64,000 nt of DNA from Shigella phage ESh22: the sequence record ON528732; one strand, 5' to 3'. The notes beneath the pieces were generated by a model, which worked only from the letters and a program-made list of their open reading frames with translations, did no database searches and was not told where the DNA came from. Both the position numbers and the translations under genes were made by a program. Below are positions 12,965-48,666 of this stretch, piece by piece (the first letter of the stretch is position 1; the number at the start of each line of letters is the position of its first letter).

Positions 12965-13385
12965 AGAGGTAGTACGTAAAGCTCTACTTAACAATGGAAC
13001 TAAAGACGATATGTATAAAGATATCGTTGCAGAATTTGGTTGTTCAAGACATGCTGCAAAGGTTCTTCTACATAGCTTTATCTGGGAGTGTTCAGAAGCT
13101 TACATGCAATCTGTAATAACTGAAGGGCTTGATATGTCTCTACCTGAACGCTTCAAAGAAGAGACTGAAGATAGCTCCATAAAGCTAAACACACTCTATA
13201 TTGTAGAAACCATTGGTACAGGTGAACCAGTAGGTACAATACTTATTGAAAGTGGGTGTAATGGTAAGTTTATTGGTTATGGTGAAGCAAACGCATATAG
13301 TGCATTCTCAACCGCACACTGGATAGTTGAAAATGATGGGTATATTCAGGTCAATGGTAAAAATACTTTCAAACTTAAGATGTGA
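12951..13385 (+). CDS. hypothetical protein
   Basis: Track ORF 12900..13385; start moved to ATG at 12951 overlapping upstream stop. Confidence 0.4.
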   Translation: MKSVKEVVRKALLNNGTKDDMYKDIVAEFGCSRHAAKVLLHSFIWECSEAYMQSVITEGLDMSLPERFKEETEDSSIKLNTLYIVETIGTGEPVGTILIESGCNGKFIGYGEANAYSAFSTAHWIVENDGYIQVNGKNTFKLKM

Positions 13386-14053
13386 TTATGGGACACCTAC
13401 TGAAGAAGAGTTGGAAGAACTTAACAGATATGGTTCCCCATCTGAAGAGGAAGCGGAAGAACTCCGAAGAATGGGAAGCAATTACTAAGAAATGTTTTAA
13501 GGATTTGATAGAGATGGAAAAGTTTGAACTTGAAAGAAAGTATCTGGTACTGAGTCTAGATGATATCAATACATATCTTGATGAAAGTGAGAAGTGGTCT
13601 TTAGAATTACTTGTTAATCGACTTAAGATGGAACGAGAAGACTCAGGTAAAGAGCCACTTGAAGGTATCTTTGTGAATAAATCTTATCCGTTCTATGAAG
13701 AGACTTTGAAGAAGCTTGAGATGTATGTTAAGCAGCAGAACCGTAAAGAAATCTCTATGGCCTCTTTAGGTGGTCAACAGATGCTCTTTGCAGAAGATAT
13801 AAACCCTTCACGAGTTAATAGAGGTGTCTGTATAAAAATCACAGGGAAAGAAGAGTTTCTTTCTAAAGCTGACTTGGAAAGTTTCTGTACAGGGTTTGGT
13901 TCAGTGTTTAACGGGAATCGTTATCACATTCAATGCTTCCCTATCAAGGGTCACACTATAATGTTACAGATACGAGAATCACATAACGGAGACACTCACT
14001 TCTTTCACACGACTATTCCAGCTATTCAGGCTGTTATAGAGAACCTTTGCTAA
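13382..14053 (+). CDS. hypothetical protein
   Basis: 223 aa ORF, last gene of the plus-strand block. Confidence 0.5.
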   Translation: MIMGHLLKKSWKNLTDMVPHLKRKRKNSEEWEAITKKCFKDLIEMEKFELERKYLVLSLDDINTYLDESEKWSLELLVNRLKMEREDSGKEPLEGIFVNKSYPFYEETLKKLEMYVKQQNRKEISMASLGGQQMLFAEDINPSRVNRGVCIKITGKEEFLSKADLESFCTGFGSVFNGNRYHIQCFPIKGHTIMLQIRESHNGDTHFFHTTIPAIQAVIENLC

Positions 14054-15700: not shown

Positions 15701-15708
15701 GCGTCTTG

Positions 15709-15957
15709 TTAGTTGCGGCCTTCTTTATCGTAATAGATAGAGATAAGAGAATCGCCCCAATAGTAAGATGAAACGCCATTTGCTAAAATCTCGTCTTTCG
15801 TTTCTTTCCAGAACCATTCAGCAGGGTTGTATTCTTTCACAGTTGCTTTCAGACACATATCAACCATATCAAAAGCGTTTCCAGTGTTTACCATGTCAAA
15901 CTTAACGTCCAGAGCATAAAAACCAAAATTGTTAACAGTTGCGCGGATAGTTGCCAT
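15709..15957 (-). CDS. hypothetical early protein
   Basis: 82 aa ORF; conserved CCTAAACTGGAGA leader immediately upstream. Confidence 0.5.
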   Translation of the reverse strand: MATIRATVNNFGFYALDVKFDMVNTGNAFDMVDMCLKATVKEYNPAEWFWKETKDEILANGVSSYYWGDSLISIYYDKEGRN

Positions 15958-15999
15958 TTTTAGAATCTCCAGTTTAGGATTATTGTTTATTGAGTCTCT

Positions 16000-16028
16000 A
16001 TAGTAGGGGCTTTGAAGCCCCTTGTCAA
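16000..16028 (-). promoter_or_regulatory. sigma70-like promoter with GC palindrome in spacer
   Basis: Minus strand TTGACA, 17-nt spacer AGGGGCTTCAAAGCCCC, TACTAT, followed by conserved leader with GGAGA RBS. Confidence 0.55.
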
Positions 16029-16032
16029 TACT

Positions 16033-16209
16033 TTAAATCACTTTCTTGTAAGAATTGCCGGAAATGATGTAGTTAGTAACTGAATGATTTAACAAGTCTG
16101 TACCAGTGATGACTACCATTTCTTCATTTTTCTTTTCTTCATGCTCTTTTTTCATTTCTTCCCAACGTTTAGCACCAAATTTTGCAATCATACGCTGTTC
16201 AAAATTCAT
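16033..16209 (-). CDS. small hypothetical protein (about 58 aa)
   Basis: ORF below track size cut-off, preceded by the conserved leader at 16210-16232. Confidence 0.35.
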   Translation of the reverse strand: MNFEQRMIAKFGAKRWEEMKKEHEEKKNEEMVVITGTDLLNHSVTNYIISGNSYKKVI

Positions 16210-16269
16210 CTTTTAAGTCTCCAGTTTAGGATTATGGGGAAGGTCATTCCCTCCCCGTTGATAAGTACT

Positions 16270-16797
16270 TTAAATGTTTGCTATCGTGTCGTCAAGTGAA
16301 TTTTCTAAGTTTTTTAAAGATTGTTCGTAAAGTCGAATTGACCTGTTCAATGCCTCGCCTAACGTTACTTTAAAAATAGTTGTTGGGTAGTCACTTGTAA
16401 ATAGATTTTCTACTTCATAGAGCGCATGTTGATGATTACCCGTCCCCATAGCATACATCCCCGTATGGTGGATTGCAATAAAAAGATTAAGAGACTTGAT
16501 AGAACGCTCATAAGCCATTTTATAGCGGTTTAGCTCGTTTTTAGTGGCTTTTATAGCCATTTCGTGAATCTCTGCAACGATAGCCATATAGTCTGGCAGA
16601 ATGACCGCTATGGCTTTCATAAAGTTGTTAGCTGTTACCATTTGCTGATTTGGGCGATGGATGTAATACTTCTTGTCTTCCCCTTTTGTGATAACTGCAA
16701 ACAACTTATCTTTAAGGGTAAATTCGAAAGTGTCTTTCACAGGTTTTTTCATTACATCTTTTGAGCGGATAGCATTGATTGCATTGAACTTATTCAT
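16270..16797 (-). CDS. hypothetical early protein
   Basis: 175 aa ORF preceded by conserved leader. Confidence 0.5.
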   Translation of the reverse strand: MNKFNAINAIRSKDVMKKPVKDTFEFTLKDKLFAVITKGEDKKYYIHRPNQQMVTANNFMKAIAVILPDYMAIVAEIHEMAIKATKNELNRYKMAYERSIKSLNLFIAIHHTGMYAMGTGNHQHALYEVENLFTSDYPTTIFKVTLGEALNRSIRLYEQSLKNLENSLDDTIANI

Positions 16798-16848
16798 CTT
16801 TGAAGTCTCCAGTTTAGGATTGTTGGTAAAGCTCTTTATCTGGGGCTT

Positions 16849-16877
16849 ATCTTATCGAACTATAAACCCCATGTAAA
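16849..16877 (-). promoter_or_regulatory. sigma70-like promoter, TTTACA-N17-TAAGAT, palindrome-containing spacer
   Basis: Minus strand TTTACA..GGGG..CCCC..TAAGAT upstream of conserved leader for gene 16270..16797. Confidence 0.5.
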
Positions 16878-16883
16878 GCACTT

Positions 16884-17081
16884 TTAGTAAATCTCATCAA
16901 ATAAATTATTGATTGCAAAAATAGCATTTTCTTTGAATCCTTGGCTATTGCTATCATCACAAAACATAACTTTACCATTGTATGTGATTTTTAATGATAC
17001 CTTTGAACCTTCAACATTCAAAGAATAAGATACACCTTTTAAACACCACAAAGTAGAAAGTTTTTGCATCAATGATAACAT
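16884..17081 (-). CDS. hypothetical early protein
   Basis: 65 aa ORF preceded by conserved leader. Confidence 0.45.
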   Translation of the reverse strand: MLSLMQKLSTLWCLKGVSYSLNVEGSKVSLKITYNGKVMFCDDSNSQGFKENAIFAINNLFDEIY

Positions 17082-17147
17082 TTTAGAATCTCCAGTTTAG
17101 GATTTTATCAGGTTGGGAGGTTTTATTCCCTCCCGTTGATGAGTACT

Positions 17148-17267
17148 TTACTTGTTTTGATTTGCCTTTGCAAGCTTTTTATCAAAGATTTTATCATCTA
17201 TTTCGCTGGCTATTAAGAGTAGGAAAGGGGTCACTACTGAGAATACCATCATATACAAAATAATCAT
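17148..17267 (-). CDS. small hydrophobic peptide (39 aa)
   Basis: ATG directly after conserved leader at 17270-17292; single predicted TM segment. Confidence 0.35.
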   Translation of the reverse strand: MIILYMMVFSVVTPFLLLIASEIDDKIFDKKLAKANQNK

Positions 17268-17452
17268 TTTTGAATCTCCAGTTTAGGAAGTTAACCGACT
17301 GAGAGAACTATAGAGAATCTTTGAAGCAATTGCAAGGCTTATCTATAAAGAATCTTTTAAGTGAATCCTTTTAGATAAACCCCCTCGAACAAATGTACTA
17401 TTGTCAAGGGGTAAAGTCAACAGTTTTTTCAAAGTATTTTGTAAGTTACTGA

Positions 17453-17794
17453 TTAGCTTATAAAGATTTTTTCAGGCTTGACATAGGTCATTTTTTGGTC
17501 TTTGAGTAAATCACTCCAGATTAAAGCGGCAATGTGACCATAGCCGGATTCACGTAATATCTTCATTGTGTTAACTTTTGTTTCAAATCGTGTTGCATAG
17601 TATTCACTGTTTAAGGTTGTTTTATTTCCTTCTTTGTCAGTGTGAACTATACGCATCACATGAAACGGGCTAACATCCTCGCCGCGATTCCATTGCTCAA
17701 AGTATTTTAGGCACTGTAAAGGCGACACTTTATCACTTACTTTTGTAGACCAAGATGAATTTTCTTTATCAGTAATTATGGTTACATGTGCCAT
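17453..17794 (-). CDS. hypothetical early protein
   Basis: 113 aa ORF preceded by conserved leader. Confidence 0.5.
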   Translation of the reverse strand: MAHVTIITDKENSSWSTKVSDKVSPLQCLKYFEQWNRGEDVSPFHVMRIVHTDKEGNKTTLNSEYYATRFETKVNTMKILRESGYGHIAALIWSDLLKDQKMTYVKPEKIFIS

Positions 17795-17841
17795 TTTCAG
17801 ATTCTCCAGTTTAGGAAGTGGGCTTGATAGATACTGTAACT

Positions 17842-17991
17842 TTACTTAATACGGTTTACAATAGATTTTTTCTTTAAATGTAGTTTTTCTGCTTTTTTCA
17901 TGGTTTTTACTAGTAACATCATGATAAATGAGAAAATCATCTCTGAGAATACAGGGTTGTTAAAAACTGTCTCAATAGTATGCGTCATCAT
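17842..17991 (-). CDS. small hydrophobic peptide (about 49 aa)
   Basis: ATG directly after conserved leader at 17991-18012. Confidence 0.3.
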   Translation of the reverse strand: MMTHTIETVFNNPVFSEMIFSFIMMLLVKTMKKAEKLHLKKKSIVNRIK

Positions 17992-18065
17992 TTGAATCTC
18001 CAGTTTAGGAAAGCTCTTTATCTGGGGCTTATAGTAGCAAGGTTTAAAGCCCCATGTAAAGTACT

Positions 18066-18302
18066 TTATTTGTAAATCTCTAAAAATTCATCTTCATTAA
18101 CGTTTTCGTAGTATTCTGTGCTTTCGTCTTCACCTTGTAAGACATAACAGTCCATTATAGACGATTTCGGGTAGTCCTGTCTAGCAATATTGAAAGCCTC
18201 TACTGCATTTTGTTTAGTGCCTTCGAAAGATTCCATAATGCCATAATGACAATTATTTGCACCAGAGCAAACGGCAAGCATGAGATAGATAGTCGTTAAC
18301 AT
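18066..18302 (-). CDS. hypothetical early protein
   Basis: 78 aa ORF. Confidence 0.45.
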   Translation of the reverse strand: MLTTIYLMLAVCSGANNCHYGIMESFEGTKQNAVEAFNIARQDYPKSSIMDCYVLQGEDESTEYYENVNEDEFLEIYK

Positions 18303-18365
18303 GATTTAAACCCCTTGTAAGCCCCTATACAGGGCTTTTGAATGTTGTTAGTGTGATTATATGGT

Positions 18366-18923
18366 TTACGCTAAAACGTCGCTTACAGTGCTTTCTGTGA
18401 TGTTAGATTGTAAGTTGTCGCACAAATCACAAAACACGTTATTCATCTCATCGCTACGTTGAATCATTACAGCAATGTTATGTAATTCATCAGGTACATA
18501 GCCAAGATTTCTATTGTTTAAGTTAGGTACAAAGAACGGCGCATACATAGCATTAAAATCAGTTGTGTAAATCTTTTTAATCCAAGATTTATCAAAGTGT
18601 TCTGTAAAGCTTGCAACGTCGCTCATATTCTCACAACTCCAGTCATCTTGTAATTCATCCTCTGGAATGTCAAGTTCCAAGATAACTATTTTTTGTGATT
18701 TCATCTGGAAAGCTGCTGTAATGCTTGCGCTATCAAGAGCATTTCGGATACCCTCATCAGTGATTTGTTCTGCGTCCATATCTTCTACATCATAGAACTT
18801 GCTAACAGGGTAAACATAAAAACACCCATCACTATCTGAGCAATTCCAAGCCCCTGAAGGTTTTTCTCCACCACTTAGCAGGTTTACAAAGTTTTCTTGA
18901 GTAGTTCCGTGAAAGCATTTCAT
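18366..18923 (-). CDS. hypothetical early protein
   Basis: 185 aa ORF preceded by conserved leader. Confidence 0.5.
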   Translation of the reverse strand: MKCFHGTTQENFVNLLSGGEKPSGAWNCSDSDGCFYVYPVSKFYDVEDMDAEQITDEGIRNALDSASITAAFQMKSQKIVILELDIPEDELQDDWSCENMSDVASFTEHFDKSWIKKIYTTDFNAMYAPFFVPNLNNRNLGYVPDELHNIAVMIQRSDEMNNVFCDLCDNLQSNITESTVSDVLA

Positions 18924-19010
18924 TTTATAATCTCCAGTTTAGGATTATTGGGGCTTGCTTGCCCGTTGATGAGTACTTTAATATATCTAAAAATCAGTGT
19001 CAAACGTTTT

Positions 19011-19412
19011 TTAAAGTTCTGCGTAAATTGTATCGCAGATATCTTGAAAATCTTGCTTTTCTAAATTACGTTGTAACCACGTTGCAAAGAAATCAGCAAT
19101 TGCAAAGTTAGCATCAAACTCAACAGATAGCCACACTTTAACAGCAAATCGAAACATTTTCAAGTCTAATTCTTTATTAAGAACTTTTGACTTTGAAAGC
19201 ATATCAGCCATTTCATATTGTGCGCCGTCAAGTGTAACACCCTGTGCAACATTTGCAAGTGAATCTCTGATGTTTTCTACGTCTAAAATTACGCCTTGAA
19301 CTTTACCGATAATGCTATGTAAAACCTCATCCGGTGCGGTTGACGTGATAGCATTAATGCGGTTAACGGTCAAACGTGCTTTCAGAATAGCGATATCACG
19401 ATTAGTAGTCAT
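19011..19412 (-). CDS. hypothetical early protein
   Basis: 133 aa ORF preceded by conserved leader. Confidence 0.5.
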   Translation of the reverse strand: MTTNRDIAILKARLTVNRINAITSTAPDEVLHSIIGKVQGVILDVENIRDSLANVAQGVTLDGAQYEMADMLSKSKVLNKELDLKMFRFAVKVWLSVEFDANFAIADFFATWLQRNLEKQDFQDICDTIYAEL

Positions 19413-19498
19413 TTTTGAATCTCCAGTTTAGGTTATTGGGTAAATCTCTTTATCTGGGGCTATCTTATCAACCTGATAACCCCATGTAAAGCAATTTA

Positions 19499-19771
19499 TT
19501 AGACTAAATACAACTTTTTACCATTAACAATAATGTAACTTACACCACTATTGCTATAAACATCTTGATAAATTCTGCGTAACTTGCCTAAATAGCGTAC
19601 TTTCCAAGATGTAGGAATTTTCTTTCCATATCCTGTAGCTGTTTTTTGTAAACCTACTATTTGCCAATCTAATAAATGTTGCTCCGCTTTCAAGTCTTCA
19701 AAGTTTAATACACCATCTATATAGTGCTTTAAAGTTACGTTTAAAGTTCTGCCATTATTAGTTGTATACAT
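19499..19771 (-). CDS. hypothetical early protein
   Basis: 90 aa ORF preceded by conserved leader. Confidence 0.5.
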   Translation of the reverse strand: MYTTNNGRTLNVTLKHYIDGVLNFEDLKAEQHLLDWQIVGLQKTATGYGKKIPTSWKVRYLGKLRRIYQDVYSNSGVSYIIVNGKKLYLV

Positions 19772-19857
19772 TTTCAGATTCTCCAGTTTAGGATTGTTGG
19801 GGCTTCTATCTTGCCCCGTTGATGAGTACTTTACTTGTTTTGATTTGCCTTTGCAAG

Positions 19858-20184
19858 CTATTTTTTGCGTTTATTAATTTCTTGTGTAATAACCGGATAA
19901 TATTCTTTTAAATCAGTAGCTTGAATAGCATTTAGCAACGCATTGTAATCATTAACAAGCTCAAAGTTACCGGATAAAACATCACTGATTTGATAAGTGT
20001 CTGCCTTAAACCTGAAGCCCATCTCTAAACGCTGTAATTGTTCCACGCTTAAACGCTCTAGGAAGCTGCTTACAAGGTTTATTTTAACTTTCCTTGTGAT
20101 AGCCTTATCTGCATAATCTGAGGCTTGATAGGCTTTATACAGCGCCACAATTGAAATCAGAATTGCAATACCAGAAAGTAACAT
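19858..20184 (-). CDS. hypothetical membrane protein
   Basis: Track ORF 19858..20241; start moved to ATG at 20184 with GGGAAGG RBS; N-terminal TM segment. Confidence 0.4.
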   Translation of the reverse strand: MLLSGIAILISIVALYKAYQASDYADKAITRKVKINLVSSFLERLSVEQLQRLEMGFRFKADTYQISDVLSGNFELVNDYNALLNAIQATDLKEYYPVITQEINKRKK

Positions 20185-20185
20185 T

Positions 20186-20476
20186 TTAAACCTTCCCAAC
20201 GTGTGATAATCTACCAGTGTGACTAATTTCATATGAATCAATCATATCAGCTTTTGATTTTACTGCTGATTTGCTAGTATTATCATAAATGTCAACCTGA
20301 AGCAATGGCTTGCCATGTTCTTTTTGAAAGTTCCAAATACAGATTAAAACTTCTTTCTTGTTAATCTTCCCATGATACCACTCTATAACACCCTGTGAAC
20401 GTCTATGAGATTCTACAAAAGAAATGTTTTGTAGTAATTGGCTTAACTTTGAGCGTACATTAGCAGGAATTTTCAT
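20186..20476 (-). CDS. hypothetical early protein
   Basis: 96 aa ORF preceded by conserved leader. Confidence 0.5.
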   Translation of the reverse strand: MKIPANVRSKLSQLLQNISFVESHRRSQGVIEWYHGKINKKEVLICIWNFQKEHGKPLLQVDIYDNTSKSAVKSKADMIDSYEISHTGRLSHVGKV

Positions 20477-20560
20477 TTTAGATACTCCAGTTTAGGATTG
20501 TTGGTAAAGCTCTTTATCTGGGGCTATCTTATCAGCCTGATAACCCCATGTAAAGTACTT

Positions 20561-21073
20561 TTAGATATTAAAGATATTCATCACACTATCTTTTAAATCT
20601 TCCAAGCGCTCTAAAACTTCCTCTTCAGCACCTGAATTACTCACTTCCTCTTTTAAGCGTGAATCTAAATCTTCCCCGTCAAGATAGCACCAATCGAAAC
20701 CATACGCAAGAGAAAAACTATTTAGAACCGTGTTCCCTTCTGAGTCAATCACTGAGGCGTATAGAATGTAGCTATTTGCCCCTAAATCCCTTTCTAGTTC
20801 ATCTTGTAAGCTCTTGTAAGCGGCTAATGATGGGTTATCCCTTCCCTGTTTTGCGTAATCACTGGCAAGCTGTGAAAGCGCATAGTGCATAGGAATTGCA
20901 TATTTGTAGCCGTTACGTTCTGAGTTTTTAACTTTGATTGTAACTCCTCCTTTATGCTCATCAGTGAATTGCCAGTTATCCACACAATGGGAAGGCTCAT
21001 AAACATTCATTGCTTCAAAGATGATAGTAAATTTTTCTTTTTGAACTTCAAAGGTGCTTTCGACTGATTTCAT
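20561..21073 (-). CDS. hypothetical early protein, acidic C-terminus
   Basis: 170 aa ORF preceded by conserved leader. Confidence 0.5.
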   Translation of the reverse strand: MKSVESTFEVQKEKFTIIFEAMNVYEPSHCVDNWQFTDEHKGGVTIKVKNSERNGYKYAIPMHYALSQLASDYAKQGRDNPSLAAYKSLQDELERDLGANSYILYASVIDSEGNTVLNSFSLAYGFDWCYLDGEDLDSRLKEEVSNSGAEEEVLERLEDLKDSVMNIFNI

Positions 21074-21159
21074 TTTTTGAATTTCCAGTTTAGGATTGTT
21101 GGTAAAGCTCTTTATCTGGGGCTTATACTATCGACTTATAAACCCCATGTAAAGTACTT

Positions 21160-21417
21160 TTAGATTAAATTGCCAATTAATGCTAAGTGCATTTTGTAAC
21201 CCTGTTTTGTAAACACGTTAGTGTTACCGATAGTTTTTACACCTTTAAACATATTGCAAGAGCTATGTTTGAGAGTTAATTTTTTGTCTGTCTTTACGCC
21301 CCATCTTACAGCAGAATCTTTTCCGTTGTCAACCACTTTACCATTTAATTTTTTAGCAGTTGCACGAGCATCATCACGGGATTTTGCAGTAATTACGATG
21401 TTTTTAATGGTAGCCAT
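21160..21417 (-). CDS. hypothetical early protein
   Basis: 85 aa ORF preceded by conserved leader. Confidence 0.5.
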   Translation of the reverse strand: MATIKNIVITAKSRDDARATAKKLNGKVVDNGKDSAVRWGVKTDKKLTLKHSSCNMFKGVKTIGNTNVFTKQGYKMHLALIGNLI

Positions 21418-21504
21418 TTTTAGAATCTCCAGTTTAGGTTAGTGATAAAATTCTTTATCTGGGGCTTATACTAGCAACTCATAAACCCCATGTAAAGCAC
21501 TTTA

Positions 21505-21888
21505 TTAGTTAATTTTGAAATCTGTTACATACCCATCACTACCAATCATTTGAGATACGCCAGCTTTTTCGACATTGTAACCCATATTAGCAAGATGATA
21601 GATTGCATCCTCATAACCATAAGTGCCACCCTGATAGCGGCGTTTATCACAACGGATTAACGTTTTACCACGTGCAGCCAGTGCATTGATGATGGCTTTT
21701 TCTCCTGAGAGTGTATCATCTAACATTGTAACGGTGTAGTGGTTTATCTTGTTACCGTTTACATCATACTTAAAATTGTATGCGTGTACAACAATTATTT
21801 TGCCTTTGAATTGCTCATTCATGGAATTTTCCAGAGCATCGCGAAAGTTTTCTTTCTTGATAAACTTTGGCATATAGTATTTTTTCAT
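21505..21888 (-). CDS. hypothetical early protein
   Basis: 127 aa ORF preceded by conserved leader. Confidence 0.5.
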   Translation of the reverse strand: MKKYYMPKFIKKENFRDALENSMNEQFKGKIIVVHAYNFKYDVNGNKINHYTVTMLDDTLSGEKAIINALAARGKTLIRCDKRRYQGGTYGYEDAIYHLANMGYNVEKAGVSQMIGSDGYVTDFKIN

Positions 21889-21976
21889 TTTAGATTCTCC
21901 AGTTTAGGATTGTTTAGTGATAAAGTTCTTTATCTGGGGCTTAAGATACTACCTTTTAAACCCCATGTGAAGCACT

Positions 21977-22138
21977 TTATGCAATAATTTTTATAAAATC
22001 TTTCATGGTTATTTTGTCGCCATTTGTTAGGGCTATGCAGTCATTACCCATCACTGACTTGTAAAGATAGAAAACTTTTCCCGTTTTAGGGTAGCCGTCT
22101 AAATCCTTGTAACGTATTACATTGCTTTCTTTAATCAT
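21977..22138 (-). CDS. small hypothetical protein (53 aa)
   Basis: ORF below track size cut-off; weak RBS. Confidence 0.25.
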   Translation of the reverse strand: MIKESNVIRYKDLDGYPKTGKVFYLYKSVMGNDCIALTNGDKITMKDFIKIIA

Positions 22139-22862: not shown

Positions 22863-23657
22863 TTAGTTACGTGCTTCAACAAAGCTAAAACGTTTATCAG
22901 AGATAATCTTATCAGCTTCTTCATGGTCTTGTGCAAGAAGGTAAACACTTGCATTGTCACCAAATGTTACTGCTCTCAAGCAGTGGTCGTGTAACGGGTG
23001 GGTAACTTGAGCGTTACTCAGAGAGTACTTCTCAACCGGAGGGTTACTTTTATGCACCTTACCCTTCCGTTTTACCCGTAGTGTAACTTGATTATCCTTC
23101 ACAACTGCGACACCATCAAAGTGTTGAGGTTCACTGTAGTTGTTCCAACCAACTATGTTATTGGTTAGTCGTCTGTGCATTGTTTCTTCATAGACATAAA
23201 GGTAAACGTCTACATCTTTCATTGTCTGGTTAATGATTGAAGTAACTGCAAAGATATCCAGACCACCAATCCCTGCACAAATCATTGGAAGACCAACCTT
23301 CTTAAGCTGGTTTACTTTGCAGTAGTTGTTAAGACGCTGCAAAGCTGCTTCTAAGGCATTGTAACGTGCATCTTTACCAGTGATAACCTGAGTGTATAGG
23401 TTAGCAATTCGACCCTGCTTGAAACGTGCTACAGAGATATTGCCAAGCATAAGATGTACAGGTTTATGGTTCTCACCACCAACTGTCTCATAAACTTCAG
23501 CGTCAGTCTCATAAGCTTTTGGGTAGCGTTTTGAGATTGTTGCTGCAATACCTGCACCCATCAAGTTCATGCAGTTGCATCCGTGACCAATGATATCAAA
23601 CTTCTGGTTATCAAAGGCTTCAAAGATATCACCTTTAATGATTTTTACAATGCCCAT
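22863..23657 (-). CDS. macro-domain protein, TARG1/DarG-like (candidate ADP-ribose hydrolase)
   Basis: 264 aa; KGDIFEA...DIIGHGCNCMNLMGAGIAATI and VGLPMICAGIGGLDIF recalled as TARG1-type macro-domain motifs; extra C-terminal region of about 110 aa. Confidence 0.6.
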   Translation of the reverse strand: MGIVKIIKGDIFEAFDNQKFDIIGHGCNCMNLMGAGIAATISKRYPKAYETDAEVYETVGGENHKPVHLMLGNISVARFKQGRIANLYTQVITGKDARYNALEAALQRLNNYCKVNQLKKVGLPMICAGIGGLDIFAVTSIINQTMKDVDVYLYVYEETMHRRLTNNIVGWNNYSEPQHFDGVAVVKDNQVTLRVKRKGKVHKSNPPVEKYSLSNAQVTHPLHDHCLRAVTFGDNASVYLLAQDHEEADKIISDKRFSFVEARN

Positions 23658-31316: not shown

Positions 31317-31342
31317 TTAAAAAGGCTCCCGTAGGAGCCTCT
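31317..31342 (-). terminator. rho-independent terminator after NAMPT-like gene
   Basis: Minus-strand hairpin GGCTCCTACGGGAGCC followed by TTTTT. Confidence 0.6.
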
Positions 31343-31354
31343 TATAATACTCAG

Positions 31355-33181
31355 TTAGAGTTGTTTGTCAATGTTATTTCGAACATCACGAAGGTTTACA
31401 TAACCATATGGTTGAGAGTTGCTAAACACCAACTTCAAAGCACATTCTGGATTATCCAGTACACCTTCAAACTCTGCAAAGCCAAAGCCGTCTACAGCTT
31501 CCAGTTTATCACCGTCACACATAGGAACTACACCACCAAAAGCAGACTTCTTAAGACCACTGTCAGTTTTAGGGTCTTTTGCCAGCATGATTTCTTCACC
31601 GTCCATCTGAGCAAGAGTAGCCTTGACAGCAAATGCAAAGGTATCACGAGTCAGGTACTGGTAAGTGTATGAACCAACACCAAAGACCACGTTAGAGCTT
31701 GCAAAACCTTTGTCAGCAAGACGACCAAGAATCTCATTAGCTCGCTCAAGGGTGATAGAATCACCATAGATTAAACCGATGTGCTCATCCAGTACTTTGT
31801 AACCTTTACTGTTCACACGACCACCAAAGATGTTGTAGAGAGTTGGGATAGCCCCATCAATCTCTGCTGTCAGCATACGCTTAACAACAATATTTCCGGT
31901 CTTATTAAAATCTTTCAAGTTAACTGTTTCAGCAGTTTCAAAATCTTCTTTATCAACAACTAACTCATAACCTTCAGAGATAAGCCATGCAGCAAACCCA
32001 TAACCCATATCCTGCAACTCACAATACTGAATAAGATTCAGGAGTTTATCATTGTTCGGTGCAATTTCTTTCATATGTTTGTAGAACATACTCTTGGCAT
32101 TTTCCCACTCAACAGCACGATAACCAGCAACAATGTGAATGGGGTCTCCAGAGTCTGGACGTATTACCAGTTTACCTTCACGCTTCAGGATAACTTCACG
32201 GAGTTCTGGGAGAATCTCTGTAACAGTACGCCAGAAGTTGTAAGTATCTGAAACAACACTTGCAATACCAGTTGGATATACGTCTACCAGTAAATGCTCA
32301 AAGGTTTTAACCTCACCACGCCAACGTTTTGCATCCAGCAAGCTATCAGACTGCATGATGTACTGTGAATGAATATCTTCCTCTGACAAGTCTTTCATAT
32401 TCCATGAAATGTTTGCGCACATCACAGAGTGTTCAGTAGCTGGTACAGAGTTGCCGATATCACTTACTTCCATAAACTGACCATAAGCACGTTTAGCAGT
32501 GTAGACAGCAGGGAAGCTGTCAGTACCTTTAAAGCTTGTCAGGTGACCTACAGCGTTAAAAGCATCATCTGTAAAGCCTGACATACCACGCATTGCAAAA
32601 TCATGACACTGCCAAGGTAAATGGAAGTCATTATCACAGGTTACATCAGCCCATTGCTTACAGATGCGTTTGTAGTGTAATGCAATAGTGGCAATCGTAG
32701 AAGCTTTCCAAATTTCAGCAGAGAAAGCATCTTCCAGATATCCAGCTACCCAATGGAAGCCCTCTACAGTATTCTTGAAGATAATCATTGGAACACGCAT
32801 TGGAACCACTGTACCCTCTTCTACAGAGTAGACTTCGACTGGCAGATAGCCTAAATCGTGAAGTTCTTCCCAATGCTCACGACCAATCGCATCTGCACCG
32901 AGAACACCGTTCATGATTTCTAAGATTTCGTCAACAACTTCTTTCTTATCTCGTTCAAAGAAGGTAGCATTCCAGTGGTCTACTAAGTAATCTTTAACGA
33001 AACGTTGAATACCAAAAGCAACTACACCGTCAATATCAAGTGGAGTGTTAAACCACTTATCACCACGAGGTGTAAGATTTAGCATCAGATACTGTGTAGC
33101 ACTTGGGTACTGGTAGATATGGCCAGCTTTGTAAGCATCCGCATTAAGACCTGCTGGTACTGCATAAACTGATTTAGACAT
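31355..33181 (-). CDS. NAMPT-family phosphoribosyltransferase homologue; candidate Namat of a NARP1-type NAD+ reconstitution pathway, or canonical NadV
   Basis: Track ORF starts at TTG 33223; ATG at 33181 preferred. Aligns by eye to NAMPT blocks: DAYKAGHIYQYP, HDFAMRGMS...SFKGTDS, SVPATEHS, SVVSDTYN, IRPDSGDP, YGDS. Confidence 0.7.
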   Translation of the reverse strand: MSKSVYAVPAGLNADAYKAGHIYQYPSATQYLMLNLTPRGDKWFNTPLDIDGVVAFGIQRFVKDYLVDHWNATFFERDKKEVVDEILEIMNGVLGADAIGREHWEELHDLGYLPVEVYSVEEGTVVPMRVPMIIFKNTVEGFHWVAGYLEDAFSAEIWKASTIATIALHYKRICKQWADVTCDNDFHLPWQCHDFAMRGMSGFTDDAFNAVGHLTSFKGTDSFPAVYTAKRAYGQFMEVSDIGNSVPATEHSVMCANISWNMKDLSEEDIHSQYIMQSDSLLDAKRWRGEVKTFEHLLVDVYPTGIASVVSDTYNFWRTVTEILPELREVILKREGKLVIRPDSGDPIHIVAGYRAVEWENAKSMFYKHMKEIAPNNDKLLNLIQYCELQDMGYGFAAWLISEGYELVVDKEDFETAETVNLKDFNKTGNIVVKRMLTAEIDGAIPTLYNIFGGRVNSKGYKVLDEHIGLIYGDSITLERANEILGRLADKGFASSNVVFGVGSYTYQYLTRDTFAFAVKATLAQMDGEEIMLAKDPKTDSGLKKSAFGGVVPMCDGDKLEAVDGFGFAEFEGVLDNPECALKLVFSNSQPYGYVNLRDVRNNIDKQL

Positions 33182-33229
33182 AATTTTATCTCTCTCAATA
33201 GTGGGGCTTTTCAGCCCCTTCAAAGTTTA

Positions 33230-34111
33230 TTACTCAATGTTTGCTACAGTTACTTGTGAGAACTGATTCAGACCACGGTCTTCAGCATCCCCTAGCGAGT
33301 TTGTAGTGTAGATATGGTCAATGCCATTGTCAAGAAGATTTTCAACACCTTTTGAGAAAATCCCATGAGTTACATAAAGTTCTACACGGCTTGCACCAGC
33401 TTCACGAAGATGTTTTGCAGCTTCTACAAAGGTACGACCACCATCACAGATATCATCGAGAATCATGACAGCTTTACCAGTTAAGTCTACATCATCAAGG
33501 ATTCGCATACCAGTGATTTCACCAGTTTTCAGATTACGAATCTTAGCCATTGTGATATATGGCTTATCAACCTCTTTAGCAGCCTCTTCAGTCTTCTTGG
33601 CTGCACCTGCATCTGGAGCCACTAAGAAATCAATACGTGGGTCACTTGCAAAGTGTACTGCTGCTTCTTTCTGGGGCAGGTTATGGAAGCACTTAAACAA
33701 GTTCTCTGCTACGTTGCTGTGAGTATCTAAAGCACATACTGCATCAAACTCCATAGCATTTACCAGATTTGCAAAGACTTTCAATGCTGCTGCATCACCT
33801 TTAAACATGTGACGGTCATAACGAGCATTTGGTAAGAAGCCAAATACAGCAGTCTTCATAGTTGATTTCTGAGGAATTAGTTTGTCAATAGCTTCTTTCG
33901 CCAGAGCTAAAGCAAACAGAGTATCTTTGTCGTAACCCTGTACAGTGAGGATTACATTCTCAATCTGGGAAGCATTCTGTTCAGCATAGGCTACTAGGTC
34001 TTCTGAGAAGTTACCACCAATTTCTCCAGACGGAAACTGGATAATGTTGAACTCTTCTTGGTGAGCACCTTTTTTACGTGAGTGTAACAGTACACTAATA
34101 ATAGTTTTCAT
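33230..34111 (-). CDS. ribose-phosphate pyrophosphokinase (Prs) homologue; candidate Adps of a NARP1-type pathway
   Basis: 293 aa; PRPP-binding-type motif ILDDICDGGRT and VAPDAGAAKK; directly upstream of the NAMPT-like gene on the same strand. Confidence 0.65.
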   Translation of the reverse strand: MKTIISVLLHSRKKGAHQEEFNIIQFPSGEIGGNFSEDLVAYAEQNASQIENVILTVQGYDKDTLFALALAKEAIDKLIPQKSTMKTAVFGFLPNARYDRHMFKGDAAALKVFANLVNAMEFDAVCALDTHSNVAENLFKCFHNLPQKEAAVHFASDPRIDFLVAPDAGAAKKTEEAAKEVDKPYITMAKIRNLKTGEITGMRILDDVDLTGKAVMILDDICDGGRTFVEAAKHLREAGASRVELYVTHGIFSKGVENLLDNGIDHIYTTNSLGDAEDRGLNQFSQVTVANIE

Positions 34112-34123: not shown

Positions 34124-34417
34124 TCAATCAAAAGTTACAAAGGTTACAGCCATAGCTGTTTTGCATTTCTTTGGGTCTACAGTATGATAAATCACTAAAC
34201 AGTTACCTGTACCGTCTGGAACTGGTTTTGTCCAAGTGCGTTCAATGTTTGGCTCTCCAAACTCTTTGTAGTAGCCATTAGATTGATGGTCTACCATCTC
34301 AAGTGCAAGGGCATCTGGAACGTGACCACGTATCATGTACATTTCACAACCGTTACCACCTTCACTAATAAGTTCTTTGATTTCCCATTGTTCTCTAGCC
34401 ATTATAAGTCGCCTCAT
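34124..34417 (-). CDS. hypothetical protein
   Basis: 97 aa ORF. Confidence 0.45.
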   Translation of the reverse strand: MRRLIMAREQWEIKELISEGGNGCEMYMIRGHVPDALALEMVDHQSNGYYKEFGEPNIERTWTKPVPDGTGNCLVIYHTVDPKKCKTAMAVTFVTFD

Positions 34418-34910
34418 AAACAGTCTCGAACTTCAACAAGAGAGATATTGCCAGAACTGCATATTCCTTGTCAAGCATTGGTGGCATATTATTTTTAATA
34501 TATTCTTTTTGTTCTGCATAGGTCATCTTAGGGGCTTCTAGAAGCTTCTCTCCTTGCTTCTGGTTATCAAGTTGAGTCTGGATAAACCAGTTAGAGCAAT
34601 GGTGCTCCCCACCCTTTGTAACGGGCTTATGGTGGCCTAATGTGAAAGATTGCTTACCAGAGTAACGGCAAAGCTTGTTAAGAGTAGCTATAGTGTTCTT
34701 TACAACACAGTACTCATAGAGGTTGTCAATAGTGTAGTGAGGGTAATATGCAAAGAGGGAACTATCACGGTACTTCCCACGATTCCAAAGAACCATGTGA
34801 TTAGAGTTTGAAGGGTCATATTGGTGAGACTCAATGAACTCTTGACGCTCATCAAAATCAAGACGTAAAACAGACATTGCAGCAGCACGTTTAAGGTTTG
34901 CGTAGTACAT
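34395..34910 (-). CDS. HNH endonuclease-like protein
   Basis: 171 aa; motif GHHKPVTKGGEHHCSNWFIQTQLDNQ. Confidence 0.4.
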   Translation of the reverse strand: MYYANLKRAAAMSVLRLDFDERQEFIESHQYDPSNSNHMVLWNRGKYRDSSLFAYYPHYTIDNLYEYCVVKNTIATLNKLCRYSGKQSFTLGHHKPVTKGGEHHCSNWFIQTQLDNQKQGEKLLEAPKMTYAEQKEYIKNNMPPMLDKEYAVLAISLLLKFETVYEATYNG

Positions 34911-34923: not shown

Positions 34924-34950
34924 TAAAAAGGGAACCTTTTACAGTTCCCT
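34924..34950 (-). terminator. rho-independent terminator
   Basis: Minus-strand hairpin GGGAACTGTAAAAGGTTCCC followed by TTTTTATTT. Confidence 0.55.
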
Positions 34951-45731: not shown

Positions 45732-46264
45732 TCATAAGTTTCTCCGTGATTTGCAAACTCTCTATGGAGTTCTTCTCTTTTCTTTCTAACAACATTTTCA
45801 GCCTCAGCTACAGAATCAAACAGTCCGAGGTGATAGCAAACTTTATTATGTTTAACCTGCGCAACCCATCTGCATCTTTGCTTGTGGTAATAGACACCCT
45901 TCACACCAGACTTGTTGTCTTTCCTCTTAGTTGCGTTGCAGTTATTATCTGACCTGCTGCACTCTCTTAAATTGTCGAACCAGTTTTCGTGCCTAATACC
46001 GTTCTTATGGTCAACTAATTTAGGTAGGTAACCTTTTATGTATAAAAATGCTAACCTGTGTGCTGCGTACCTTTTACCAAAAAGTTTTATATAAACATAG
46101 CCGCTATGGTGTTTAACTCCAGCTACAGAGCCAGCTTTAGCCTTACCAGTTCTATCTACTAACCAAGTAAAGACCCCTGTTTCGGGGTCATAGTGTAGGT
46201 ATTCTTTAAGAATCTGCTGAGTTAACATTTGGTGTCCACCCATACTTATCAAAAGTGAAATCAT
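45728..46264 (-). CDS. HNH homing endonuclease with AP2 DNA-binding domain
   Basis: 178 aa; VDHKNGIRHENWFDNLRECSRSDNNCN plus AP2-like SGVKGVYYHKQRCRWVAQV; start may be a downstream ATG. Confidence 0.6.
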   Translation of the reverse strand: MISLLISMGGHQMLTQQILKEYLHYDPETGVFTWLVDRTGKAKAGSVAGVKHHSGYVYIKLFGKRYAAHRLAFLYIKGYLPKLVDHKNGIRHENWFDNLRECSRSDNNCNATKRKDNKSGVKGVYYHKQRCRWVAQVKHNKVCYHLGLFDSVAEAENVVRKKREELHREFANHGETYE

Positions 46265-47252
46265 CTTTCTTGTTTCTTTCCTGATAGGCTAAGAAGAAGT
46301 GTTGCTGCATTAACTCTAAAGGTGTTCTGGTAATTGTCTGGCCATCCCATGAAACATAAGTATAAGAGTCTTTCTTAGCGTAGAGTTCGTAAATTGCATC
46401 AAGACATTCTTTATAAGTGGTTTTACCTTCAAGAGCTTTCATTACTGCAACTTTACCAGCACCTTTTAAACCAAAGTAGTTATCTGCATTATCACCAGCG
46501 ACAGCTTGGTAGCAGAGGAATTTAAATCCCACTCCGACCGCCTTCTTAGCTTTTGGTGTAGATTTTATTGGACAATCCCAAATCTCACCAACGTTATTAT
46601 CAGCAATAAAAATCAATGGGTTTTTCTCATAAGTCATATCAATGCAATAAGTACCTTCAGCTTGACGAAGGTCTTTGTCAATACTCATGAGGGCAGCTTT
46701 TTTACCCATCTTCTCAGCTTTCGCAATAACGATAGAGTCAGCTTCAAATCCATCAAGAATCAGCTTAAACTCAGGTCGTGACAGAAGATACTCACGACAA
46801 GCAACTAGGTGCGTAGGTGTCACCGCTTCTTTTCTGTTACCTTGATATTGGTGTTCAAGACCTTTGATATCCTTGTGTTTGTGAACACCTTTCTCAGTAA
46901 GGTAACCCATCCATTTTCGCTCTTTACCAACGACTTTCAACCACTCCTGAAGAACCTGCTGAGTCGCCATAATAGCTTCTTTTTCACTCTTGGCTTCCTT
47001 CCAAGTCTGTCTTTCCCATTCATCTTCATCAAAGTCAAGTCCAAGTTCCTCTGTAAGAACTCTCTGGTCAGCTAACCATTGTGAAGATAACTTAGCACTA
47101 TCAAAGTCATCAGACTCTTCAGCGGTAAGTTTATTCACATACTTGTACTTTGCTTTTTCAACTACACAAGCACCCTTGTAAGCAATGCTGTCTGCGTCAA
47201 TGAAGACGTGTGTAACGCTTTCTGGGAGCTTTGTAAGTGTATACTGATTCAT
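46206..47252 (-). CDS. 5'-3' exonuclease / flap endonuclease
   Basis: 348 aa; H3TH-type motif VAGDNADNYFGLKGAGKVAV and N-terminal acidic pocket HVFIDADSIAY. Confidence 0.65.
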   Translation of the reverse strand: MNQYTLTKLPESVTHVFIDADSIAYKGACVVEKAKYKYVNKLTAEESDDFDSAKLSSQWLADQRVLTEELGLDFDEDEWERQTWKEAKSEKEAIMATQQVLQEWLKVVGKERKWMGYLTEKGVHKHKDIKGLEHQYQGNRKEAVTPTHLVACREYLLSRPEFKLILDGFEADSIVIAKAEKMGKKAALMSIDKDLRQAEGTYCIDMTYEKNPLIFIADNNVGEIWDCPIKSTPKAKKAVGVGFKFLCYQAVAGDNADNYFGLKGAGKVAVMKALEGKTTYKECLDAIYELYAKKDSYTYVSWDGQTITRTPLELMQQHFFLAYQERNKKDDFTFDKYGWTPNVNSADS

Positions 47253-47263
47253 TGTACCTCCAT

Positions 47264-47296
47264 ACGAAAAAGCCCTATACGTTCTGTACAGGGCTT
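47264..47296 (-). terminator. rho-independent terminator
   Basis: Minus-strand hairpin AGCCCTGTACAGAACGTATAGGGCT followed by TTTTT. Confidence 0.55.
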
Positions 47297-47314
47297 TGTA
47301 GTAACTACTGAGAA

Positions 47315-48160
47315 TTAATCTTCAGTATCGAAATCATCATCATCATCCGGTGTTGGTAGGTCGTCATCGTCATCACCACCTTTATCATCATCAGAATCTT
47401 TTGCATCTTCTTCAGAGATTTCACCGTTGTCTTCAACACCTGCGAGACCAAGCAGTGCCAGTTCGTCTTCATCAAGTTCAGTCTCGGTTGCACCACCAGT
47501 ACCACCAGTGTATGGAACCAGAGTATCAATGATAAACTGCTCCTGAATTGGCTTAGTCAGAACGTTACCTTCGAAGGTGTAGAAGTGAGTCGAAAGAATC
47601 ACACTACCAAAAGAACCATTACCGACTGCAATATCTGGACAGACAACATCGTAAGTCTTGTCATCGTCATGCTTGTCAGATTTTGCTGCCTTAATTTTCT
47701 TCATAGGTTGCTTAACCGCAACACGTTTACCGTTCAGTTCTTCAACCAGCATCACAGGAAAACTCTGTTTTGCTGACCATACAGCACCATCTTTGTAAGC
47801 TGCTGAACGGCTAACCTTCAGGATGTAATAAGTGTCAGCTTCGAATGGAGGCTCACAACCAAACTTCTCTTCAAAGTCATCTGCATCAACAGTCTCTGTA
47901 GTGACCTTATCCCAACCATCTGGATTTTTTTTAGACTTGGTGAACTCTTTAAAGAGCTTGTTACCGTCTTTTGCCAGAATTGAAACGCTGTAATTACAGT
48001 CTTTGCCTGGGAAATGTTTGTCTACAGACTTGCCCTTCTGAGGGCGTGGAATAGTATTCAGGTAGTAGAACCAAACATCTTTCAGCAGGTAACGATAAGT
48101 TTCAAGTTCTTTACCGTTGTATTTTTCTACCGGAGATTTCATTTTAACAACTTTAGACAT
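47315..48160 (-). CDS. single-stranded DNA-binding protein-like, acidic C-terminal tail
   Basis: 281 aa; extreme acidic tail ending DDDDDFDTED; position between primase-helicase and exonuclease. Confidence 0.45.
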   Translation of the reverse strand: MSKVVKMKSPVEKYNGKELETYRYLLKDVWFYYLNTIPRPQKGKSVDKHFPGKDCNYSVSILAKDGNKLFKEFTKSKKNPDGWDKVTTETVDADDFEEKFGCEPPFEADTYYILKVSRSAAYKDGAVWSAKQSFPVMLVEELNGKRVAVKQPMKKIKAAKSDKHDDDKTYDVVCPDIAVGNGSFGSVILSTHFYTFEGNVLTKPIQEQFIIDTLVPYTGGTGGATETELDEDELALLGLAGVEDNGEISEEDAKDSDDDKGGDDDDDLPTPDDDDDFDTED

Positions 48161-48247
48161 TTTAATACCTCTTTCTCAAATTAACTATCAATTCAAATCT
48201 TATTGGGAGTACAATCTTACATGCTTCATACCCCCATGTCAAACATT

Positions 48248-48385
48248 TTAAGCAGCTTTCTTGGCAGCTTTACGAGCAGTCTTACCAGTGCGAACTCGCT
48301 TCGTTTCGTAATGTTCAGCAGACTTACCAGCAGTTGCTTTCAGGGAATCACCAAATACTGCTTCAAATGCTTTAGAGTGTTTCAT
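48248..48385 (-). CDS. small basic protein (45 aa)
   Basis: ORF below track cut-off with GGAG RBS. Confidence 0.3.
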   Translation of the reverse strand: MKHSKAFEAVFGDSLKATAGKSAEHYETKRVRTGKTARKAAKKAA

Positions 48386-48666
48386 TTTGTGCTCCGATAT
48401 ATTTCATATTCAAATGTTTTTAAAGTCAAGGTAAAAAGATAAATTGTTTCAGCTTTGTCAATTGACAGTGCAAACAAGTCTTTATCTTCACGGCTTTCAT
48501 GTTCATAAGTAACATCATGCCCCTTGTTGATTAGTACTTTAGCGAACTCTTCAATCTTAGTCAAGCAATCTTTTGCAAATTTTTTAGTGCTATTTTCTGA
48601 ATAGAAGGGCGTGATGCCCTCCTTCAGATAACTATCAGTCAGTTTCAAACGGGCAGTCATCATCAC
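48382..48666 (-). CDS. hypothetical protein
   Basis: Track ORF 48382..48927 overlaps primase 3' end; start moved to internal ATG at 48666. Confidence 0.3.
   Translation of the reverse strand: MMMTARLKLTDSYLKEGITPFYSENSTKKFAKDCLTKIEEFAKVLINKGHDVTYEHESREDKDLFALSIDKAETIYLFTLTLKTFEYEIYRSTK

Follow-up and report, generated by a model that had tools for sequence, protein, structure and literature searches.

A very probable NARP1 operon for NAD+ reconstitution in Shigella phage ESh22, a close relative of the founding pair in Bas63

NAD+ reconstitution pathway 1 (NARP1), consisting of Adps and Namat, was discovered in Escherichia phage JohannRWettstein (Bas63) and is found in 4.3% of phages, or in 5.4% when NARP1 and NARP2 are taken together (Osterman et al., bioRxiv 10.1101/2024.02.11.579819). 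This was an important recent discovery. The counter-defence repairs damage instead of inhibiting each system singly; the NAD+-depleting systems countered are many and unrelated (Thoeris, DSR1/2, SIR2-HerA, SEFIR, Kongming, and SPARSA). The underlying chemistry has been shown in vitro for the enzymes of SPbetaL1, P. foliorum, and DyoEdafos, and the production of ADPR-pyrophosphate (ADPR-PP) by Bas63 has been shown in vivo through metabolomics. Deletion of the Bas63 operon led to the loss of both ADPR-PP production and escape from SIR2-HerA, and escape from NAD+-depleting defence has been demonstrated with Bas63, with Fado, and with a knock-in of the SPbetaL1 operon. Since the proteins of Bas63 "did not purify well", in vitro work was performed on the 491-aa Namat of SPbetaL1. 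A three-gene arrangement, NARP1-AP (Adps-Adpp-Namat), has been described in Vibrio phages Gary and AG74 (bioRxiv 10.64898/2026.01.28.702374), and the published survey of NARP1-AP was restricted to the two genes on either side of NARP1.

The window analyzed in the present study, a stretch of 64,000 nucleotides from Shigella phage ESh22, represents a phage of the Mooglevirus/Felixounavirus type (Ounavirinae). In the ORF listing, adps (33230..34111, minus strand, 293 aa), a Prs-family gene predicted to encode the ADP-ribose pyrophosphokinase of NARP1 step 1, comes first and is followed after a gap of 48 nt by namat (31355..33181, minus strand, 608 aa), a NAMPT-family gene predicted to encode the nicotinamide ADP-ribose transferase of step 2. 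These ORFs confirmed the original prediction of a Prs-like gene with the motif ILDDICDGGRT (aa 217-227 of Adps) directly upstream of a NAMPT-family gene on the same strand. The namat reading frame extends over 31355..33223; a TTG start yields a protein of 622 aa, and a start at the ATG (33181) yields one of 608 aa. This ATG was preferred because it is preceded at a distance of 8 nt by the Shine-Dalgarno sequence GAGAGAG (33190..33196, minus strand), because it is the start annotated for namat in both Shigella phage ESh21 and Bas63, and because the TTG lies before an intergenic hairpin that the Shine-Dalgarno sequence follows; the TTG at 33223, just upstream of this hairpin, was dropped as a start. 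Both genes are intact and, judged from their Pfam and PHROGs matches, are genuine genes and not chance ORFs. Identity between the window and ESh21 amounts to 99.5-99.9% over the NARP1 region and to 93-97% at 1774..21160 and 46236..48518, so that the two are not byte-identical; despite this divergence elsewhere, both NARP1 proteins are identical to those of ESh21.

Namat matched PF04095 (NAPRTase, 3.6e-29), PF18127 (NAMPT_N, 1.4e-05), and phrog_448 ("nicotinamide phosphoribosyl transferase", 2.4e-195). It is 74% identical over its full length to Bas63 gp80 (593 aa) and 100% identical to the ESh21 protein ON528731_00025, which is designated "Adps-associated" in the supplement of Osterman et al. 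Its top PDB sequence matches were 9w5w/9w5x (E 6e-126), with mammalian NAMPT at 4e-39, and the AF2 model (pLDDT 92.3) had the "Namat" structures 9w5x/9w5w as its top fold matches (TM 0.94-0.95). With SPbetaL1 D13', Y15', F189, R192, D215, the catalytic His, R306, and D308 as the reference, the core residues D15, Y17, F195, R198, D221, H251, R341, and D343 are conserved and invariant in a 32-sequence alignment, and the replacement of SPbetaL1 S190 and A362 by A196 and S475 represents minor contact changes.

The adenine clamp was also recognized. The clamp helix, GSYTYQYLTRD (G503 to D513), conforms to the published Namat-specific consensus GSX-phi-X-phi-X-phi-TRD, in which positions 3 and 7 are aromatic (PMC12774641), and the corresponding site of H. 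ducreyi NadV (9KE8), a true NMN-forming enzyme, reads GAQTYQRNTRD. The clamp loop is TPRGDK42W43F, equivalent to TPRSDKWF in Bas63. The stacking residue of this loop has been described as an Arg at the third position or as a Lys/Tyr followed by the stacking residue, and Bas63 was cited as the type with Lys and the next residue (PMC12774641).

The length of approximately 608 aa, to which the original prediction had drawn attention, was confirmed with the ATG start; as a hallmark of Namat it does not hold, the SPbetaL1 enzyme having 491 aa. The protein is long because of two lineage-specific insertions, both of which are common to Bas63. Insertion 1, a loop/helix of approximately 32 aa (32315..32410, minus strand, aa 258-289), falls opposite a gap when Namat is aligned with 9w5x, has the lowest model confidence (pLDDT 59-80), and is 15 aa longer than its Bas63 counterpart. 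Insertion 2, an alpha/beta subdomain of approximately 88 aa (31856..32119, minus strand, aa 355-442), is missing from both SPbetaL1 Namat and NAMPT, and is confidently folded in the model, yet had no match among known folds.

Regarding Adps, matches were obtained to PF14572 (Pribosyl_synth, 1.1e-10), PF00156 (1.5e-10), and phrog_619 ("ribose-phosphate pyrophosphokinase", 7e-98). The protein is 82% identical without gaps to Bas63 gp79. Its identity to SPbetaL1 Adps (WIT26982.1), an enzyme with known biochemistry, is 30-32% (E 2e-26 for the match at 32%), and the essential K162 of that enzyme (equivalent to K197 of B. subtilis Prs) aligns with K190, a residue invariant in our alignment (A1). The only NCBIfam model passed was the broad subfamily model TIGR01251 (127.5 bits against a cut-off of 113); Adps fell below every Prs equivalog cut-off by 190 to 470 bits, with NF002095 as the best (105.9 bits against 296), and thus did not score as a canonical Prs. 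By eye, its sequence is the same as ON528731_00024 in the Adps table of Osterman et al., an entry that the authors' Prs/Adps table places in the Adps clade with "Yes" for a Namat neighbour. The clade assignment adopted here draws on that table together with the identities and the equivalog scores.

The lack of an NMNAT in the window, as originally predicted, was verified and extended to the whole ESh21 genome by Pfam and six-frame motif searches. When 37 non-structural ESh21 proteins lacking annotation were scanned with Pfam, none matched PF01467, NUDIX (PF00293), or NadR; a six-frame search for the (H/T)xGH signature yielded no NMNAT context, and the genes flanking adps-namat gave no Pfam match to PF01467 or PF00293. 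Among the known NARP1 accessories, neither Macro/Adpp nor RyR/RyDEP was found in the immediate neighbours, and genome searches did not find an RyR gene. As for the statement that phage NadV usually pairs with an NMNAT, the counts in the discovery paper indicate the reverse, a Prs-like partner being the commoner one. In Aeromonas phage CC2, a low-identity Nampt match adjoins a Prs-like gene and not an annotated NMNAT.

The view that these genes form a NARP1-type module is supported by the identity and gene order shared with Bas63, the listing of ESh21, the clamp motif, the conserved catalytic residues, 9W5W/9W5X as the best matches, and the absence of an NMNAT from the genome searches, and we consider it very probable that adps-namat is the NARP1 operon of an Ounavirinae phage. 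The profile and structure search of both proteins that had been proposed with the original prediction placed Namat closest to 9W5W/9W5X and Adps below the Prs equivalogs, and every sequence-level criterion that was tested supported the same assignment. The pair is a near-copy of that of Bas63, and the ESh21 pair is listed in the discovery paper; therefore, the reading is correct, but concerns an already catalogued member and not a new discovery. By analogy with its homologues, the two enzymes would perform the chemistry and the anti-defence role known from them. A defence effector (SIR2, TIR, SEFIR, and similar) would split NAD+ into ADP-ribose and nicotinamide, after which Adps, as a diverged Prs-family pyrophosphokinase, would transfer pyrophosphate from ATP onto C1'' of the ribose in ADP-ribose to give ADPR-PP. 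Namat, with its NAMPT-fold core and an adenine-binding "selectivity clamp", would then replace the pyrophosphate with nicotinamide and thereby form NAD+ directly, such that NAD+ would be remade without an NMN intermediate and without an NMNAT.

The names in current use suggest a different pathway, in which a true PRPP synthetase and a true Nampt (NadV) produce NMN, from which the host makes NAD+ by way of NadR or of PncC, NadD, and NadE. The annotations in Pfam, PHROGs, NCBIfam, and GenBank all employ these enzyme names, and Namat exceeds the cut-off of NF006629 ("nicotinate phosphoribosyltransferase") with 461 against 405 bits; the capacity of SPbetaL1 Namat to form NMN in vitro also speaks for this route. 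Against such a salvage route, the Adps of the window misses all Prs equivalog cut-offs, and Namat possesses the adenine clamp, a feature missing from genuine Nampt/NadV enzymes. Furthermore, SPbetaL1 Adps pyrophosphorylated ADPR, whereas no measurable product was obtained in the assay for Prs activity, the substrate of which was ribose-5-phosphate according to the figure legend. Considering these results, we regard classical salvage as extremely improbable for this gene pair.

Some classical NMN-forming activity may nevertheless reside in the Namat of the window because SPbetaL1 Namat forms NMN from PRPP in vitro without ADPR-PP (PMC12774641). As NARP1, the operon may serve a second purpose, with Namat also using host PRPP to form NMN when ADPR-PP is absent, by which NAD+ would be topped up through host enzymes even in defence-free cells; this would add to NARP1 and not replace it. 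In the absence of ADPR-PP, the NMN-forming activity of SPbetaL1 Namat was approximately half that of human Nampt, and clamp mutations left it unaffected (PMC12774641). On the other hand, the same enzyme yielded only NAD+ when both substrates were supplied, and Bas63 infection without a host defence system did not raise NAD+ (Osterman et al.), and we accordingly consider the additional role to be very unlikely.

Predicted RNA elements lie on both sides of namat. RNA folding revealed a hairpin, GGGGCU-GAAA-AGCCCC, between adps and namat (33203..33218, minus strand), with a centroid energy of -12.8 kcal/mol and z = -3.46 against shuffles. This hairpin (GGGGCTtgaaAGCCCC) is also present between the adps and namat genes of Bas63 and may function in RNA stability or attenuation. 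At 12 nt past the namat stop codon, a consensus scan, which is a pattern match only, detected an intrinsic-terminator-like hairpin with a T-run (31320..31343, minus strand) consisting of a 10-bp stem with 5 GC pairs and a TTTT tail, and this likely represents the 3' end of the transcription unit. Upstream of adps, an HNH-like small gene (34395..34910, minus strand, 171 aa) overlaps by 8 nt with a second small gene (34124..34402, minus strand, 92 aa) that ends 12 nt before adps, and the consensus scan placed another terminator-like hairpin (34929..34950) just upstream of the 171-aa gene. The two small genes matched phrog_3500 and phrog_4726, both of unknown function, with a weak HNH match (2.9e-05), and a Pfam search of their products returned no significant match. 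They are kept in Bas63 as gp77 and gp78 and probably share a transcript with adps-namat, which we note as context only; membership in NARP1 is unsupported.

A Macro-domain gene (22863..23657, 264 aa), Adpp-like and Poa1p-like, is located approximately 7.7 kb from adps-namat. Its product belongs to phrog_335, as does that of the gene between adps and namat in AG74, a place occupied by Adpp in phage Gary. The window therefore resembles NARP1-AP in its Adps and Namat core, and differs from it in that the Macro gene lies outside the operon and carries an extra C-terminal region of approximately 110 aa. The genes flanking adps-namat gave no Macro match within the two genes on either side that define NARP1-AP, and neither ESh21 nor Bas63 appears in the tables of the paper on NARP1-AP and aRES (bioRxiv 10.64898/2026.01.28.702374). 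As a tentative and rather unlikely joint reading, the phage may run a "split" NARP1-AP and, separately, the 88-aa Namat subdomain may add a function. The Macro protein would dephosphorylate ADPR-1''-phosphate, the product of aRES-type RES NADases, to ADP-ribose, which would then serve as substrate for the Adps-Namat operon at a distance of 7.7 kb, and the subdomain, missing in the SPbetaL1 enzyme, may contribute, for example, to regulation or partner docking. If a split NARP1-AP operates, Felixouna- and Moogleviruses would resist aRES though uncounted in the published survey.

Closely related to the founding pair and already catalogued, the locus adds nothing new to NARP1, and its value lies in annotation. 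The labels in GenBank, PHROGs, Pfam, and NCBIfam remain "ribose-phosphate pyrophosphokinase" and "nicotinamide/nicotinate phosphoribosyltransferase", and a scan for GS[YF]x[YF]x[YF]xTRD that also requires an adjacent Adps gene and the absence of an NMNAT would correct such labels.

In comparisons with known systems, the cellular combination of Prs with NadV/Nampt (H. ducreyi NadV 9KE8; human NAMPT) belongs to the same superfamilies and shares the order of pyrophosphoryl transfer followed by the displacement of PPi by nicotinamide, but uses ribose-5-phosphate and PRPP where NARP1 uses ADP-ribose and ADPR-PP, and genuine NadV is without the aromatic clamp residues. NARP2 of Vibrio phage KVP40, which comprises Nampt and a bifunctional Nmnat, likewise employs a NAMPT-family enzyme and restores NAD+ under NAD+-depleting defence, whereas it requires Nmnat and uses PRPP. 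Its hallmark, a PF01467-type nucleotidyltransferase usually fused to Nudix, was absent from the searches described above, and the Namat of ESh21 is classed as "Adps-associated" and not "Nmnat-associated".

With NARP1 of Bacillus phage SPbetaL1 (9W5W, 9W5X, PMC12774641), the Namat fold is shared, every listed contact to nicotinamide, ribose, and phosphate is kept apart from the two minor changes, the Adps catalytic Lys is retained, and the clamp helix reads GSFTYQYNTRD against GSYTYQYLTRD in the window. The differences lie in sequence identity (30-32% for Adps and approximately 36% for Namat, the in vitro reference, by structural alignment), in the shorter Namat without both insertions, and in the clamp loop, where Lys42 and Trp43 take the place of Arg40. 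Bas63 (bas63_0079, bas63_0080) differs in genus, being a Felixounavirus while the window phage is a Mooglevirus, in an extra small gene (0081) after namat, and in the 15 aa by which insertion 1 is shorter. It otherwise shares with the window the gene pair, its order and strand, the neighbours (NrdG upstream and rIIA/rIIB downstream), the long-form Namat with both insertions, the K-W clamp loop, and the intergenic hairpin.

The original prediction placed two adjacent genes on the same strand, and the ORF listing bore this out at the stated coordinates: a 293-aa Prs-family protein containing ILDDICDGGRT (Adps) is encoded at 33230..34111 (-), and a NAMPT-family protein (Namat) at 31355..33223 (-), with a length of 622 aa from a TTG start or 608 aa from an ATG at 33181. 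The ATG is likely to be the namat start because GAGAGAG lies 8 nt ahead of it and the TTG at 33223 is just upstream of a stable hairpin in the adps-namat spacer; the TTG was rejected because of this position and because namat is annotated from ATG in both ESh21, a nearly identical Shigella phage, and Bas63, the founding NARP1 phage. Adps matched PF14572 and PF00156 and Namat matched PF04095 and PF18127 in Pfam, while very strong PHROGs matches were obtained to "ribose-phosphate pyrophosphokinase" and "nicotinamide phosphoribosyl transferase", respectively.

The profile and structure comparison proposed with the original prediction placed Adps nearer to the Adps of the Bacillus phage SPbetaL1 (30-32% identity, E 2e-26) than to any solved Prs, the best of which gave a far weaker match (E 9e-18); no Adps structure was present in the PDB set searched. 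In NCBIfam, Adps cleared only the broad TIGR01251 subfamily model and scored far below all Prs equivalog cut-offs (e.g., 105.9 vs 296 bits). Its K190 aligned with K162 of SPbetaL1 Adps, the K162A mutant of which is inactive (Osterman et al., bioRxiv 10.1101/2024.02.11.579819). The AlphaFold2 model of Namat, based on 32 homologues (pLDDT 92.3, pTM 0.91), was nearest to "Crystal structure of Namat" (9W5X/9W5W, TM 0.94-0.95), followed by HdNadV and then mammalian NAMPT.

The original prediction remarked on the length of 608 aa, which is greater than the roughly 490 aa of canonical NAMPT; this length is not diagnostic of Namat, and SPbetaL1 Namat has 491 aa. In the alignment to 9W5X, the additional residues corresponded to one insertion at aa 258-289 and another at aa 355-442, both of which are also carried by Bas63 Namat (593 aa). 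The greater length characterises a lineage whose operon has been functionally validated, and is not a hallmark of Namat. The second insertion site is a hot spot, with 24 to 102 aa across Namat homologues. In the present protein, its ~88 aa (31856..32119, -) were predicted, in context and alone, to fold into a compact subdomain of the alpha/beta type (pLDDT about 91-96), for which no match was found in PDB, BFVD, or Pfam and which is not discussed in the Namat structure paper (PMC12774641).

Adps and Namat constitute NARP1, which rebuilds NAD+ from ADP-ribose (ADPR) and nicotinamide, and Nampt and Nmnat constitute NARP2. The predicted absence of an NMNAT from the window was confirmed by the annotation, Pfam, and six-frame motif scans, the last of which revealed no NMNAT-type GxFxPxHxGH context. 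An NMNAT is also absent from the GenBank annotation of the entire 86.4-kb ESh21 genome, which beyond the window contains tRNAs and structural genes, and when 37 non-structural ESh21 proteins that lack annotation (each of at least 120 aa) were scanned against Pfam, no match to PF01467, NUDIX, NadR, or RyR was obtained. The lack of an NMNAT argues, at the sequence level, that the locus is NARP1 and not NARP2, and this reading, which was that of the original prediction, is also supported by homology to Bas63, the clamp residues, and the Namat fold match. On the other hand, the premise that phage NadV usually pairs with an NMNAT was not upheld: the reported share of phages with NARP1 is 4.3%, against 5.4% for NARP1 and NARP2 together (Osterman et al.), and, therefore, a Prs-like partner is more common in phages.

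Regarding the transcription unit, pattern scans detected terminator-like hairpins at 34929..34950 (-) and 31320..31343 (-), which appear to bracket four genes. Directly upstream of adps, and probably on the same transcript, are the genes for a 171-aa protein with an HNH-like GHHKPVTKGGEHHCSNW motif (34395..34910, -; phrog_3500) and a 92-aa protein (34124..34402, -; phrog_4726), both of which are conserved in Bas63, as gp77 and gp78. The 48-nt adps-namat spacer contains a stable GGGGCU-GAAA-AGCCCC hairpin (33203..33218, -; 13639..13654 in comparison locus L003; z = -3.46), the stem of which is kept in Bas63, where it is followed by an ATTTT tail; this hairpin may act in RNA stability or attenuation.

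A 264-aa Macro-domain protein (PF01661, 5.4e-07) is encoded ~7.7 kb downstream on the same strand (22863..23657, -), and could be an unlinked Adpp, an ADPR-1''-phosphate phosphatase, that extends NARP1 to the products of the NADase defence aRES. Its best PDB match was yeast Poa1p, an ADPR-1''-phosphate phosphatase, and it has phrog_335 in common with the Macro gene that Vibrio phage AG74 carries between its adps and namat genes (27% identity, E 4e-15). The operon-encoded Adpp of Vibrio phage Gary allows NARP1 to overcome aRES (January 2026 preprint, bioRxiv 10.64898/2026.01.28.702374); the survey in that preprint covered only two genes on either side of NARP1, and ESh21 and Bas63 are absent from its tables. 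T4-like phages also frequently carry members of this Macro family, next to the vs gene, and the N-terminal domain of the present protein showed a weak, below-cut-off match to the DarG macrodomain (E 1.6e-13). The extra C-terminal region of ~110 aa had no Pfam match.

Other arrangements of the two genes were also observed. In enterobacterial chromosomes, a short-form Adps-Namat pair adjoins an NrtR-type regulator, in agreement with published remarks on bacterial NARP1. In a Klebsiella michiganensis chromosome contig (L006 2211..5491), a short-form 496-aa Namat with GSFTYQYNTRD, which belongs to a protein cluster with 1229 members, is encoded immediately after an Adps-like gene (48% identity with the present Adps at aa 92-273), and the pair is divergent from a NUDIX plus WHD_NrtR regulator; an ADPR-responsive NrtR over an ADPR-recycling pair would make regulatory sense. 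In the T4-like Aeromonas phage CC2 (L004 1410..5512), six small ORFs separate the Prs-like and NAMPT-like genes, which may represent a spaced NARP1 variant.

The 3.5-kb region was 99.9% identical to that of Shigella phage ESh21 (ON528731.1; Ounavirinae, Mooglevirus) and 84-88% identical to those of ~150 Felixounavirus-like phages of Escherichia, Shigella, Salmonella, and Citrobacter. Identity between the whole window and ESh21 was 99.5-99.9% over most of its length and 93-97% in two stretches with indels (1774..21160 and 46236..48518), with short repeated 90-nt matches near 20476..21980. The window therefore represents ESh21 or a very close sibling. Its sequence does not agree byte for byte with the ESh21 record, and the divergent stretches suggest either mosaicism in a sibling phage or differences of assembly in the "UNVERIFIED" GenBank record. 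Namat was 100% identical to ESh21 Namat, and Adps agreed with the ESh21 entry printed in the supplement of Osterman et al., the tables of which give ON528731_00024 under Prs/Adps with Namat neighbour "Yes" and ON528731_00025 as an "Adps-associated" Namat. The exact ESh21 pair is already among the 859 catalogued NARP1 phages, and the finding is already known.

Namat and Nampt share a catalytic core, to which Namat adds a two-element adenine-binding "selectivity clamp", the variable loop of which provides Arg, or Lys/Tyr plus the next residue (2026 structure paper, PMC12774641). Residues were mapped by a HMMER alignment to 9W5X, in the numbering of that paper, and verified by a script. The nicotinamide pocket (D13', Y15'), core (F189, R192, D215), and ribose contacts (R306, D308) of SPbetaL1 Namat correspond to D15 and Y17, F195, R198, and D221, and R341 and D343, respectively, and the catalytic His is present as H251; the only contact changes are S190 to A196 and A362 to S475. 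The SPbetaL1 clamp helix GSFTYQYNTRD corresponds to GSYTYQYLTRD (503-513), whereas that of the genuine, NMN-forming Haemophilus ducreyi NadV (PDB 9KE8), GAQTYQRNTRD, is without both aromatic residues. In the clamp loop, R40 of SPbetaL1 is replaced by K42-W43 (TPRGDKWF), the Bas63 type as given in PMC12774641. NARP1 was discovered in the BASEL phage Bas63 (JohannRWettstein, Felixounavirus; genes 79-80), and the deletion of its operon reduced plating on SIR2-HerA by ~20-fold, abolished the partial recovery of NAD+, and eliminated ADPR-pyrophosphate from infected cells (Osterman et al.). Bas63 gp79 is 82% identical to the present Adps (293/293 aligned, zero gaps) and gp80 is 74% identical to Namat, and the two phages have the gene order NrdG, small ORFs, adps, namat, small ORFs, rIIA, and rIIB in common.
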